Position numbers and translations under genes: made by a program | DNA from: a virus | Lineage: Duplodnaviria; Heunggongvirae; Uroviricota; Caudoviricetes | Strand: one strand, 5' to 3' | IMG/VR virus record: IMGVR_UViG_2711768011_000013 | Length of the DNA stretch: 6,983 nt | Part shown: positions 2,161 to 5,838 of the stretch, in pieces | Numbering within the stretch: the first letter of the stretch is position 1 | Layout: each line of letters begins with the position of its first letter | Notes under the pieces: model-generated | The model's input: only the letters and a program-made list of their open reading frames with translations | What the model was told of the DNA's origin: nothing | Database searches by the model: none

Positions 2161-2935
2161 TTACTCAACGTCAAACGCCCGAATTGAAGCCAAATCATCC
2201 AGACCGCTCAGCTCCTCTTTCATTTCACGCTGACGGCGATAAATCTCATCGTTGCGATCGACCTGCGCCTGCACCATTGCTGCCGCCAGTTCTTCCAGTT
2301 CCGGCATCGACAGTTTCACCTGCTGATTATCGGCATCNNNNNNNNNNNNNNNNNNNNNNNNNNNNNNNNNNNNNNNNNNNNNNNNNNNNNNNNNNNNNNN
2401 NNNNNNNNNNNNNNNNNNNNNNNNNNNNNNNNNNNNNNNNNNNNNNNNNNNNNNNNNNNNNNNNNNNNNNNNNNNNNNNNNNNNNNNNNNNNNNNNNNNN
2501 NNNNNNNNNNNNNNNNNNNNNNNNNNNNNNNNNNNNNNNNNNNNNNNNNNNNNNNNNNNNNNNNGTTTGTGCTGTGACAGATTTTGCCAGCATGACTACC
2601 GGGGACAGGCGGCCCAGTGAGTTGGGGCCAGCATTCCAGATACGACCGTTCCATTCAAACGTGAACGGCTTCGCCTCCTGTTCTGTGCGCCATGCTTCAA
2701 TTTCCTGACGTCTGGCCTCTCTGGCCGCTTCCAGCATTTCTGGTGTCACAGTGAATGGGGCTATCTCACCCCATTTGCCACTTTGCAGTTCCTGCCAGAT
2801 TCGCTGACCCGTCGGTGCGACATCATCAGCGGTGGCTGTGTAGGGGACTGCCTGGTCCCTGTCGTCAAAAAAAACGTCACAGTCTACTGCGCCACTTTCG
2901 GTATAACGGGGATTAATGATTTTTTTAATTTCCAC
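2161..2935 (-). CDS. Putative tail-fibre assembly/chaperone-like protein, interrupted by the assembly gap; family not recognised
   Basis: A GTG at 2935-2933 lies 13 nt after the upstream tail-fibre stop and has an AGGA 7 nt upstream. The N-terminal part reads VEIKKIINPRYTESGAVDCDVFFDDRDQAVPYTATADD...FEWNGRIWNAGPNSLGRLSPVVMLAKSVTAQ up to the gap. A separate coding-looking C-terminal segment on the far side (2337 down to stop TAA 2163-2161) reads ...MPELEELAAAMVQAQVDRNDEIYRRQREMKEELSGLDDLASIRAFDVE. Its position after a tail-fibre gene suggests a chaperone, but whether the two segments are one gene cannot be decided because of the N run. The track ORF 2327..2995 is a frame artefact through the Ns. 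Confidence 0.45.
2338..2564. other. Run of 227 N: assembly gap or masked sequence
   Basis: Literal n characters. Any ORF or frame crossing this interval is uninterpretable. Confidence 0.99.
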
Positions 2936-2945
2936 GGTGCATTCC

Positions 2946-4214
2946 TCACGATGTGCGAATAAAAAGCCCGGGCATTGCGCCAGAGACATGAGCATCCGGC
3001 ACCCCGGACAGGGCGCTATATGACCCCGGTAATGAATGCTCTGAACATCCCGTAATGAAAAATTGTGGGGATGCTATATACGTTCCGGTGGGAGTACTGG
3101 GCACTGAAATCCCCACCGGTCCCAGTCGTGAGCCTCTGTATGACTGCCCCCTGACAAGTCTGATGACTTTATCACCGTCAGCTTCTCCCTGGTACGCAGC
3201 AATAATCAGCCCGCCAATGTCAGGGTCTCCCCATCTGTTGCAGACAGAGCTCGCCACGATTCTGTAAATAATATCTTCTGTGGTTATATTTATTTTCACC
3301 CAGCCAGTCAGTCTGGATATGGGCCAGTAGCAGTAGCGGGTGTGATAAATGGGGCCGTTAATGCCGTAAAAAGTAAGGGATTTGGCTCTGTACCTCGGTT
3401 CTGTTGTCTCAGGGCGTGCATCAGTCCACCGGATGCTGAGCACCCCTTCAAACCGTGTGTCGGGTATGATGATGTCGTAGGGGCCAGCAACGGAATATTC
3501 ACCTGGCAGCGCATTCCTTACCCAGGCCAGGAAATCACTCTTAGTGTCAAAACGGATAACATCTTCAGGCAGAAAAGCACACCCAAAGCCGAATGCGCCG
3601 GGTATCGCCAGACGGCCTTTTGTCCGGTCGTAAATGTCGCTCTGTGCTTCCATCGTGGCCGCACTTTTCAGCCCCAGATTATCCCGGGACTTCTGTTGTG
3701 CCTTTTCGCCTGCTGCTGCGATTTCAGACAGATGGTTAGCCGTTTTCAGAGTGCCGGTCAGCGCAGCATCAATGTCATTTTTGGCCTGCTCTGCTGCGCG
3801 GGCATAACCTGCGGCTGCCGCCACATCCTGCGCCGTCTGCTGTGCGTTTCCGGCTGCGGCCCCGGCGCTCTGCTGCGCCTGCGCCACCATTTCCTCAAAG
3901 CGTTTGACGACATCCGGTTTCAGGTCGCCCTCATCAGGAGCAATCAGAAAGTCATTCAGCGTGCCGGGCTTTGAGTCGTCGTATACAGCAATGTCGCCAA
4001 CACAGTACTCGTCGCGCCAGTCCCGTTTCAGATACACGCAATATTTTCCGACCTGTGCCTCAAACGAATATTCACCGTTATTTCCGGTCACTACATCAGC
4101 CCTGGTACGCATCACCACTTCTGAGGTGTTTACACGGGATTTCAGAATAATCTGGCATCCGGACATGGGGATGCCTGCGCCATCAGTCAGCGCACCTGAT
4201 ATCACTACAGACAT
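2946..4214 (-). CDS. Phage side tail fibre protein with a lambda Stf-like N-terminal domain and an unrecognised C-terminal (probable receptor-binding) domain
   Basis: 422 aa. The N-terminus MSVVISGALTDGAGIPMSGCQIILKSRVNTSEVV...YDDSKPGTLNDFL aligns by eye to the lambda Stf N-terminus (MAVKISGVLKDGTGKPVQNCTIQLKARRNSTTVV...YEDSQPGTLNDFL). It is followed by an Ala/Gln-rich coiled region (AQAQQSAGAAAGNAQQTAQDVAAAAGYARAAEQAKN) typical of fibre shafts. Stop TGA at 2946-2948. Confidence 0.85.
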   Translation of the reverse strand: MSVVISGALTDGAGIPMSGCQIILKSRVNTSEVVMRTRADVVTGNNGEYSFEAQVGKYCVYLKRDWRDEYCVGDIAVYDDSKPGTLNDFLIAPDEGDLKPDVVKRFEEMVAQAQQSAGAAAGNAQQTAQDVAAAAGYARAAEQAKNDIDAALTGTLKTANHLSEIAAAGEKAQQKSRDNLGLKSAATMEAQSDIYDRTKGRLAIPGAFGFGCAFLPEDVIRFDTKSDFLAWVRNALPGEYSVAGPYDIIIPDTRFEGVLSIRWTDARPETTEPRYRAKSLTFYGINGPIYHTRYCYWPISRLTGWVKINITTEDIIYRIVASSVCNRWGDPDIGGLIIAAYQGEADGDKVIRLVRGQSYRGSRLGPVGISVPSTPTGTYIASPQFFITGCSEHSLPGSYSALSGVPDAHVSGAMPGLFIRTS

Positions 4215-4237
4215 AGTTTTTCTCGCGATAAATTAAA

Positions 4238-4783
4238 TCAGGAAGAACCTTCCGGAGAGACGGACCATTCAATGGCGTTATATGAGGATTTATCAGTGAT
4301 GGTGCTGAAATCCATCGCCTGCAGCGATTTCGCGTAAATACGGTACGCTTTCAGTTTTTCCCGGTCTTCGTCGCTGATTAGCCCCAGCAGCAGGTCTTCT
4401 TCCCATTCCCCTGTCCGGGCACTGACCTGAGCCAGAAGGGCATCACGCTCATCTTCCGCTTTGAGTCTGTAGTCAAAGACAAATTCATCATTGCGGTAAA
4501 ACCAGTAACCCGGCGCGGTAATGCGGCGGTTGGCGGTAATATCAGGAACTTCAATAACACTGGCGTTACGGGGTTCAATGCCTGTCACATCCTTACCGAC
4601 CCACACCACGCGCCCGTCTCCGGTGTAAACCATTTTTATGGTGTCACTGGCAAAGTTCTTCTGTTCTTCATACCAGTTTTTGCCGTCTTCCGAAAAAAGC
4701 CAGGTGACATCATACTGTTTTGTCAGCTGATATTATTCCGCGGTTTTCGGATTACCTGCCGTAATATTTTTTAAATGCAACAT
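4238..4783 (-). pseudogene. Tail fibre assembly protein (P2 gpG / Tfa family) inactivated by an in-frame nonsense codon
   Basis: From ATG 4783-4781 the frame reads [58 protein letters not shown]...EVPDITANRR..., colinear with the P2 gpG-type N-terminus recalled from memory ([44 protein letters not shown]...VEVPDITSNRR). The TAA at 4735-4733 replaces the Gln (CAA) codon at position 17. The track's 131-aa ORF (4238..4633) is the remnant from an internal Met. Confidence 0.75.
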
Positions 4784-4785
4784 TG

Positions 4786-5838
4786 TTAAATACTCGCTAC
4801 GTTATACCAGGTGCCATTAATCAGTTTTTGCAGCGGTCGGTAATACACGCCGTTGACGTTATCCGCTGAGTTACGGCCGGTATCCGATATCGATATCCCT
4901 GACAGCCCGTGTCCCGAAGGTGAGCGAAATGTCCACGAAACGGTGTTACTGCCGGGGGGGTAATACATTTCATAACCATACCGCACATCCTGCACGCCAC
5001 CATTTCGCTGCTGGTAACGGGCATCAAAGTTTCCGTAGTCTGACGGTGTTACCCGTCCTGTAACGTTTACAGCTTTATTACTCTGGATACTGCCACTCTG
5101 AAAACGCAACACATGCACGCTATTGGCATAAACATCCAGCAGGCCATCACCATTCTGTTTGAATCCGGTGTCATTATCACCAAGAACAATTGAATTCCCC
5201 CCCAGGGCGTTCTGAACGCCGATACCCAGCGCACCATTGACCTGCGAACCACCGCCAACAGACACTTTATGCGACATGGATATTTCACCCGTCCGCAGAT
5301 TAATGGTGAACGGGCGCAGGGGACCAATATCGCCATTTTCCCCCTGACCTTCACTGGTGGGAATAAGGTGCAGGCACTCTTCCGAACGACGAAAAATCAG
5401 GCCAAAAGCTTCGTTGAAAATCCTCAGCGCATTAACACCACGGATTTTCAGCTCTCCGGTCATGGTGTCGCCATCACGCTGAACGGCATTTTTTGCCTTA
5501 TCCACCGTGGGTTTTAATCCGAGGTTTTCAACAGCCTCATCCCTGTCTTCCACATCCGAAAGGTTATTTTTTATCAGCAATGCCTCTTCGTTAATTGCAC
5601 CGCCCACCAGCAATAATATAGCCTTATATAGCTGGTCGTGTTCTTCTTTATTCAGTTCTATCCCGGCCTTCTCAATGACACCACAGATTTCCTCCTGAAT
5701 GGCATTCCACATGGCACTGTTCAGCCAGGTAGCAAGACGTCCTGTGCGAAGATTTCCGTCAGTAAATCCGTTCTTACCCGGACCAAACTTATCTTTTACC
5801 GCAGTCAGCGTATCAATCCTGTGCATCTTCATCCTCAT
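4786..5838 (-). CDS. Phage tail fibre protein with a P2 gpH-like C-terminal tip
   Basis: 350 aa. It ends ...YYRPLQKLINGTWYNVASI, which matches the P2 gpH C-terminus (...RPIQYCINGTWYNAGSI), and it contains the GDTMTGEL motif common in fibre proteins. It follows the gp48-like gene with an overlap. Three in-frame ATGs occur at 5838, 5832 and 5826; the last has the best AGGA spacing, so the true start may be 5826. Confidence 0.85.
   Translation of the reverse strand: MRMKMHRIDTLTAVKDKFGPGKNGFTDGNLRTGRLATWLNSAMWNAIQEEICGVIEKAGIELNKEEHDQLYKAILLLVGGAINEEALLIKNNLSDVEDRDEAVENLGLKPTVDKAKNAVQRDGDTMTGELKIRGVNALRIFNEAFGLIFRRSEECLHLIPTSEGQGENGDIGPLRPFTINLRTGEISMSHKVSVGGGSQVNGALGIGVQNALGGNSIVLGDNDTGFKQNGDGLLDVYANSVHVLRFQSGSIQSNKAVNVTGRVTPSDYGNFDARYQQRNGGVQDVRYGYEMYYPPGSNTVSWTFRSPSGHGLSGISISDTGRNSADNVNGVYYRPLQKLINGTWYNVASI

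Follow-up and report, generated by a model that had tools for sequence, protein, structure and literature searches.

The window analysed here is the whole 6,983-nucleotide (nt) stretch of IMG/VR virus record IMGVR_UViG_2711768011_000013 (Caudoviricetes), and all positions refer to it. It comes from a Shigella-like genome and holds the unremarkable tail-fibre end of a phiP27-type prophage in decay, with two tandem tail-fibre cassettes, each made of a fibre gene followed by the gene of a chaperone or presumed chaperone. The two cassettes probably form the last part of the late (tail) operon in a temperate myovirus of the phiP27 type, which would make both of its different fibres together, without switching. 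The two-cassette arrangement is itself already known: it has been in GenBank since phiP27 was sequenced, and the NCBI pipeline names all four genes in matching Shigella and Escherichia coli genomes. The module in this window is a dead relic, with a nonsense codon in the Tfa gene, a baseplate J gene cut by the insertion sequence (IS) IS1, and the whole block kept beside the effector gene ipaH.

Organization of the two cassettes

All real genes between positions 2161 and 6900 lie on the minus strand. Four of them (fibre 1, Tfa, fibre 2 and the DUF4376 gene) form a set bounded by a Mu gp48-type baseplate gene on one side and a strong terminator on the other. The set and its boundaries are as follows, in the direction of transcription.

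5813-6403, minus strand: Mu gp48/YmfQ-type baseplate wedge gene, directly 5' of fibre 1 (PF10076, E=2.3e-25; phrog_203, E=4.8e-73); corresponds to phiP27 L53
4786-5838, minus strand: fibre 1, a baseplate-type tail fibre (phrog_6859, E=5.7e-209; PDB 5yvq, E=4.6e-25)
4238-4783, minus strand: Tfa chaperone pseudogene of the Caudo_TAP (Mu U/P2 G) type (PF02413, E=7.3e-21; phrog_136, E=6.8e-35)
2946-4214, minus strand: fibre 2, 422 amino acids (aa), whole gene (PF08400, E=2.4e-63; phrog_2636, E=7.8e-205)
3939-4214, minus strand: fibre 2 residues 1-92, Stf-type N-terminal 'collar' anchoring domain (PF08400; 9e7m/9mgh; 7kjk)
2946-3938, minus strand: fibre 2 residues 93-422, an Ala/Gln-rich shaft and then a distal domain of receptor-binding type (residues 190-422, 2949-3647)
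2161-2935, minus strand: DUF4376 gene, presumed chaperone of fibre 2, with a GTG start at 2935 (PF14301 and phrog_1141 on both flanks of the N-run)
2338-2564, no strand: run of 227 N inside the DUF4376 gene, where relatives have 16 nt
2024-2045, minus strand: hairpin resembling an intrinsic terminator, at the end of the tail operon where the DUF4376 and ipaH genes converge; the best site of the scan

The intergenic gaps within the set are 2, 23 and 10 nt, and there is an overlap of 14-26 nt between fibre 1 and the gp48 gene upstream of it. A site scan of the window found no promoter-like site on the minus strand inside the gene set. The terminator hairpin, read from 2045 to 2024, has a 9-pair stem with 7 G-C pairs and is followed by GTTTTTCC. 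Because the gaps are small, the first gene overlaps gp48, no internal promoter-like site is found and a single strong terminator follows the last gene, the four genes would be expected to form one operon and to be co-expressed.

The initial annotation, made from the sequence without database searches, had described two tandem, co-directional fibre/chaperone cassettes of different ancestry. The two cassettes are borne out by domain matches far beyond chance, and their separate ancestry is supported as well. The two fibres show no significant similarity to each other (best E=1.5), with fibre 1 a Mu S/P2 H mosaic and fibre 2 carrying a lambda Stf-type N-terminus. The two chaperones are unrelated by profile comparison, and their assignment to one family was rejected at an hhalign probability of 0.1%, a value obtained from shallow profiles (effective number of sequences, Neff, 1.6) at which a very remote link is conceivable.

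Cassette 1: fibre 1 and Tfa

Fibre 1 (350 aa) matches phrog_6859 from end to end. Its true start is probably the ATG at 5826, which gives a protein of 346 aa and is conserved as in phiP27 L54 and Shigella sonnei. The best relative among solved structures is the Mu tail fibre S (PDB 5yvq), and the match covers three stretches of the protein: the N-terminal part, the middle and the receptor-binding C-terminus. Over residues 197-350, fibre 1 and the P2 tail fibre (gpH) are 68.8% identical, which agrees with the P2 gpH-like tip noted at the outset, and protein identity to phiP27 L54 is 83.7%. The Pfam scan gives no match to PF12571, the P2 H-type N-terminal domain, in the fibre 1 N-terminus, and its gp37_trimer match falls on fibre 1, not on fibre 2. 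By these comparisons fibre 1 is a mosaic that joins a Mu S-like N-terminus to a P2 gpH-like tip. It has both the homology of the Mu S and P2 H baseplate fibres, including the receptor-binding tip, and their position after the gp47/gp48 (J/I) wedge genes.

The Tfa gene begins 2 nt past the fibre 1 stop codon and scores 75.1 bits against PF02413 (cut-off 22.1). It has the Caudo_TAP domain and lies directly downstream of a fibre gene, and it lacks an intact reading frame, so the P2 gpG-like pseudogene of the initial annotation is confirmed. The gene is disabled by an in-frame TAA at 4733-4735 (codon 17), where the aligned intact genes of enteroinvasive E. coli (EIEC) and phiP27 have CAA. A frameshift was rejected as the cause; a single nonsense change from CAA to TAA is present instead, and it is common to the S. 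sonnei copies. As a pair, cassette 1 resembles Mu S/U (S'/U', the G segment) and P2 H/G, since fibre 1 matches Mu S along its length and P2 H at its tip and, as with Mu U and P2 G, the partner belongs to Caudo_TAP.

Cassette 2: fibre 2

The N-terminus of fibre 2 is of the lambda Stf type, as originally proposed. Residues 1-131 score 212.6 bits against PF08400 (cut-off 26.6), residues 1-92 match the solved lambda Stf collar (StfN) domain (9e7m/9mgh, E=4.6e-17), and residues 1-198 match the collar spike gp40 of the Vibrio myophage XM1 (7kjk, E=1.1e-06). In solved virions the PF08400-type domain is a ring-forming anchor (PMC12617516, PMC10457771). In Ur-lambda a ring of this domain sits on gpV/gpM and bears four Stf trimers (PMC12617516), and in XM1 the homologous anchor binds the neck and carries six trimers (PMC10457771).

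The C-terminal half of fibre 2 and the downstream partner had both been recorded as unrecognised, and profile or structure prediction had been proposed for residues ~200-422 and for the 2161-2935 product. Both belong to known families, phrog_2636 and DUF4376, the second with a published chaperone function. Beyond PF08400, fibre 2 matches phrog_2636; Pfam has no match (E up to 0.01) for the distal 233 aa. Residues 190-422, used as the query of a full HMMER scan, retrieve a distal-domain family of 94 representatives at 50% identity. The domain has a conserved C-terminal motif, LPGxYxALSG...GLFxRxA. The domain is C-terminal in nearly all near-full-length matches, which are fibres of roughly 250-1,030 aa, and a profile search finds it behind three N-terminal anchors, namely PF08400, PF12571 (P2 H type) and PF03406. 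An AlphaFold2 model of the distal half has a predicted local distance difference test (pLDDT) score of 76.5.

Compared with Stf of lambda (Ur-lambda), fibre 2 has the same PF08400 N-terminus with a homologous collar domain and is likewise an accessory fibre encoded after the primary host-recognition gene. The distal regions differ: Stf has a T4 gp37-like tip and a Caudo_TAP Tfa, whereas fibre 2 has another distal domain and a DUF4376 partner.

A short 'LS(D/E)...NLGLK' motif occurs in fibre 1 residues 87-134 and in fibre 2 residues 156-206, in each case just before the variable distal part, as part of the match that is not significant (E=1.5). It resembles what we take to be the conserved box for fibre-tip exchange among Mu, P1, P2, lambda and T-even phages.

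The DUF4376 partner of fibre 2

The two flanks of the N-run match PF14301 (DUF4376) separately, with E=5.9e-05 and 1.4e-05 (23.9 and 25.9 bits; cut-off 25). They cover profile positions 1-42 and 56-98, with about seven profile residues missing between them. The same flanks match phrog_1141 with E=8.8e-57 and 2e-21, and PF14301 is also present in database homologues of the protein that share 74-97% identity with the S. sonnei copy. For the S. sonnei orthologue, AlphaFold2 gives a model with a pLDDT of 84.3, in which the annotated N-terminal extension of 19 aa is disordered. The GTG start at 2935 is favoured because the 19 extra residues from the upstream annotated start are disordered in this model; this GTG is preceded by a GAGGAA Shine-Dalgarno sequence.

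The gene begins 10 nt past fibre 2, and it is co-inherited with the fibre 2-type distal domain. In every context examined, that distal domain is followed by a DUF4376 gene. The contexts are as follows.

phiP27: L56/L57
Rac-SA53: tail3/tail4
P2-like prophage (L021): J, I, H-like fibre, Tfa, second fibre, DUF4376
Mu-like Salmonella prophage: fibre, DUF4376, com, mom
Lytic Vequintavirinae phage Av-05

Across these contexts the DUF4376 partner is 63-77% identical, and the distal domain falls to 30-36%. Because the partner stays conserved while the distal domain diverges, it may recognise a conserved feature of that domain, so that the parts in contact with the receptor can diverge.

Experiments on the Alteromonas phages V22 and A5 and on Campylobacter CJIE1 show that DUF4376 proteins are necessary for making active fibres, or help in making them (PMC7289586, PMC10579305, PMC7882524). 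By their published descriptions, V22 gp26/gp27, A5 gp8/gp9 and the CJIE1 H-fibre with its downstream gene share the layout seen here, in which a fibre gene is directly followed by the gene of a protein of ~190-240 aa with a C-terminal DUF4376. The protein of the window is of the V22 gp27 type, with PF14301 in its C-terminal part and a length of ~190 aa, although the Alteromonas and Campylobacter systems differ in host and in the distal domains of their fibres. By analogy with these systems, the DUF4376 protein is presumed to be the chaperone of fibre 2.

The run of N in the DUF4376 gene

The segment 2161-2935 had been annotated as a gene with one product. It contains 227 N and is 775 nt long, which is not a multiple of three, so that it cannot be read as one open reading frame (ORF). 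In all 20 loci compared, 16 nt (ACCCCACGCCATATGC) stand at the position of the N-run, and the gene there is 564-567 nt long. An exact 61-mer of the window has no match in the genome_contigs collection and is found in 12 IMG/VR contigs, one of which is near-identical to the window (L033). This contig is 100% identical to 2565-6983 and has 11 mismatches over 5-2337, all of them within 2111-2266. It is continuous at the site of the N-run and has an intact DUF4376 ORF of 187 aa.

The sequence type changes across the run. To its left the window is 99.8% identical to the EIEC type and 94.4% to the S. sonnei ssrA prophage, and to its right it is 99.95% identical to the S. sonnei prophage. The DUF4376 gene occurs in multiple copies in Shigella, and it is a place where hundreds of draft contigs break off; partial DUF4376 proteins with 928 and 355 member sequences stem from contigs of 535 and 874 nt. 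Given the 16 nt in relatives, the intact ORF of L033, the change of sequence type and a multi-copy gene inside which draft contigs end, the most likely explanation of the N-run is a gap in the assembly or scaffold whose size was estimated.

A real insertion of ~211 nt, such as a small mobile element, that disrupts the DUF4376 gene and is hidden by the N is an unlikely alternative. It would account for a run 211 nt longer than the 16 nt of relatives and for the broken reading frame, and the description of the collection states that some stretches are masked. An insertion at this site is, however, absent from the 20 loci at the DNA level and from seven homologous proteins, as well as from the continuous L033, and a multi-copy gene with a change of sequence type is the typical setting of a scaffold gap. 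The Shigella flexneri SF2024-type proteins have no insertion at the site either; they are N-terminally truncated by an IS junction elsewhere instead. The clustering of mismatches to L033 just left of the gap (2111-2266), together with the change of sequence type, suggests a scaffold join in a multi-copy region.

Relatives and origin of the arrangement

The closest characterised system is the Stx2e phage phiP27 (NC_003356), whose genes L52-L57 have the identical order of J, gp48, fibre, Tfa, PF08400 fibre and DUF4376, followed by the prophage end and attachment site. By gene order and gene families the window carries a phiP27-type tail-fibre module. At the nucleotide level the two are 87-93% identical in the baseplate genes, in most of fibre 1, in the 3' part of Tfa, in the N-terminus of fibre 2 and in the 3' end of the DUF4376 gene. 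The differences lie in the tips and in the state of the module. The fibre 2 distal domain is only ~31% identical, the window copy has a shaft shorter by 68 aa, and the two fibre 1 tips are not alike. phiP27 is a complete phage genome in which these genes are intact, whereas in the window Tfa is a pseudogene and IS elements cut the module short. In phiP27 the module is followed by L58/attR, and in the window by ipaH.

Rac-SA53 ends with the same four genes, and at least 88 of 5,426 complete E. coli genomes have the junction between Tfa and fibre 2 at >=80% coverage. A block of fibre, Tfa, PF08400 fibre and DUF4376 also occurs on a baseplate of the DUF2612 or 'baseplate wedge 1' type in the EIEC strains VL7S7 (L019, 8054-11697) and FDAARGOS_943 (L018, 5054-9577), again with ipaH after it. 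Given this other baseplate type, the four genes and ipaH move together from one tail lineage to another. In SfV, orf19-orf22 continue the same Mu-like baseplate series (gp44-48 homologues) with a fibre gene, a fibre assembly gene, a terminator and cargo, and differ from the window in having one fibre/chaperone pair only. This single pair on the same baseplate type shows that cassette 2 is an optional add-on, one that became a common co-inherited unit.

The initial annotation had interpreted the two cassettes as module accretion rather than a switch. The arrangement is not a switch, and accretion is right only as deep evolutionary history, for which the single pair of SfV and the occurrence of the distal domain/DUF4376 pair behind other N-terminal anchors speak. 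As an event at the present locus it does not stand: the whole six-gene order was inherited from a phiP27-like phage and recurs in Rac-SA53 and in at least 88 E. coli genomes.

Probable production of two fibres from one transcript

In the reading that we consider probable, both fibres of the intact phage would be produced from one late transcript and mounted together. Fibre 1 would sit on the baseplate wedges after folding by the Tfa chaperone. Fibre 2 would attach through its collar domain at another, ring-shaped site of the virion, away from that of fibre 1, and would be matured by the DUF4376 protein as its presumed chaperone. A separate docking site for fibre 2 is suggested by its N-terminus, which is a lambda Stf-type collar domain. 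The Stf fibre of Ur-lambda speeds adsorption by means of a second receptor (PMC12617516), and by analogy the virion of the intact phage may have had two receptor specificities.

Three points weigh against this reading. The literature searched, which did not include the phiP27 genome paper, contains no experiment showing both fibres in phiP27-type particles. Lambda is a siphovirus, and its gpV/gpM docking site at the junction of tube and tip would lie under the sheath in a lineage with contractile tails. Finally, neither cassette is functional as it stands, given the stop codon in Tfa and a DUF4376 gene that is unreadable across the N-run. In XM1, gp40 is a fibre-like trimer that sits on a homologous N-terminal anchor in a contractile-tailed phage, which shows that this type of anchor works on myoviruses. 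The difference is that gp40 is attached at the neck, where it lies between the proteins of head completion and tail termination, and that the baseplate of the window is of the Mu type, not the XM1 type; the window contains no neck genes.

A more specific version is put forward tentatively, as a possibility with the odds against it. In phiP27-type and related contractile-tailed temperate coliphages, the PF08400-anchored fibre may be a second fibre set off the baseplate wedges, for example on a neck or collar ring as in XM1, and matured by a DUF4376 chaperone with a predicted prefoldin-like core of helix and beta-hairpin. If this is true, common prophages would be dual-receptor phages, and a fibre-chaperone pair would move as a unit between Mu-like, P2-like, XM1-like and lytic phages. 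Knowledge of the seat of a collar fibre on a Mu-type contractile tail, and of the role of enterobacterial DUF4376 proteins, would help host-range engineering of temperate coliphages and tailocins. The window has small value as a discovery. Its main use is as a correction: the distal domain is a recurrent receptor-binding domain, the partner is a presumed DUF4376 chaperone, and the long partner gene is most likely an artefact of the N-run.

Alternative explanations

The two fibres might instead be alternatives that compete for the same baseplate sites, so that a lysate contains mixed particles and the phage hedges its bets without an invertase. Such competition is plausible in the P2-like prophage L021 (1-5808, from a metagenome or read-run assembly), in which both of two tandem fibres carry a PF12571 anchor, the first with a Caudo_TAP partner and the second with a fibre 2-type distal domain and DUF4376; these two may compete for one baseplate site. 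In the window, by contrast, the N-termini are unrelated (Mu S-like versus a PF08400 collar, E=1.5), and in solved structures the PF08400-type domains are seated on rings of the tube or neck and not on wedge proteins. For the present locus we regard this explanation as quite improbable.

It is far less probable still that cassette 2 is cargo, with a surface or lysogenic-conversion function gained together with ipaH, and not a virion component. The cassette does lie at the extreme prophage end beside an effector gene, where morons accumulate (PMC3530523). Fibre 2 nevertheless has a bona fide virion-anchoring domain and a fibre shaft, the cassette occurs in phages that have no ipaH (phiP27, Rac-SA53 and the lytic Av-05), and its place is within the tail operon, ahead of the terminator, with ipaH running towards it.

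Least probable of all, and effectively refuted, is the view that an invertible host-range switch like Mu G, P1 C or e14 P lost its invertase and decayed here. The point in its favour is the homology of fibre 1 and Tfa to Mu S/U, which belong to the invertible segment in Mu. The arrangement is not a switch, because there is no invertase, no crossover repeat and no fibre segment on the opposite strand. Neither the ORF list nor the Pfam scan of the window contains an ORF or domain of a serine-recombinase invertase (gin/cin/pin), as had been noted from the first. The flanking sequence, in which a search for an invertase had been proposed, is likewise free of one among the called genes and annotated products of the EIEC and S. 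sonnei relatives (up to 10 kb), and so are the 63 annotated features of the whole phiP27 genome. Inverted crossover sites (~26-34 bp) flanking a variable segment are absent from the window; its longest inverted repeats (15-29 nt, 72-94% complementarity) are scattered and do not exceed chance, and the gix/hix core AAACCNNGGTTT is at chance level, with 5 matches against 2.75 expected. Mu has a Gin-type invertase, gix sites and an oppositely oriented alternative pair, whereas here both cassettes are on the minus strand, each fibre has its own N-terminus, and the window has no alternative tip and chaperone sets in opposite orientation that share one N-terminal part. The second cassette is of another family and is not an alternative S'/U' pair.

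Flanking genes and IS ends

Two further genes lie outside the four-gene set and its boundaries.

6403-6900, minus strand: 3' part of a baseplate J/Mu gp47-type gene, cut by the IS1 end at 6901 (PF04865, E=3e-08; phrog_1608, E=1.1e-40)
266-1981, plus strand: ipaH, gene of a type III secretion system (T3SS) effector E3 ligase (571 aa), cargo at the prophage end (PF14496 NEL, E=6.7e-77; PF12468, E=1.6e-18)

Both ends of the window are IS sequence. Positions 1-107 are the 3' end of an IS3-family element, which copies in S. sonnei and many Stx2a phages match at 100%. The IS1 end that truncates the baseplate J gene (6900/6901-6983) is 98.8-100% identical to IS1 ends in S. sonnei loci, and in the related S. 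sonnei copies of the prophage remnant the upstream tail genes are likewise broken by IS1. Since its ends coincide with those of the 6,768-nt contig L033, the window has the look of an entire draft contig with an IS copy at either side.

The ipaH gene encodes an intact IpaH with NEL and LRR domains, and the protein is identical to one in S. sonnei genomes. Phage-borne effector genes usually sit after fibre genes (PMC3530523), as ipaH does in the window. Exact matches of the fibre 2 and IpaH proteins show that S. sonnei has the two window halves at separate sites: the fibre genes lie in the prophage remnant on the ssrA side, and ipaH lies elsewhere between inverted IS copies. The window therefore stems from another strain or is a scaffold. 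The LRR part of the gene has 36-44% G+C and a 60-nt repeat periodicity (551-814). A perfect match to GTATCGTTTTTTTACAG is present on the plus strand at 130-146, ~120 nt upstream of the ipaH start codon, and 0 of 200 shuffles matched. The site fits what we take to be the MxiE-box consensus, and as such it would presumably place ipaH under the control of T3SS activity.

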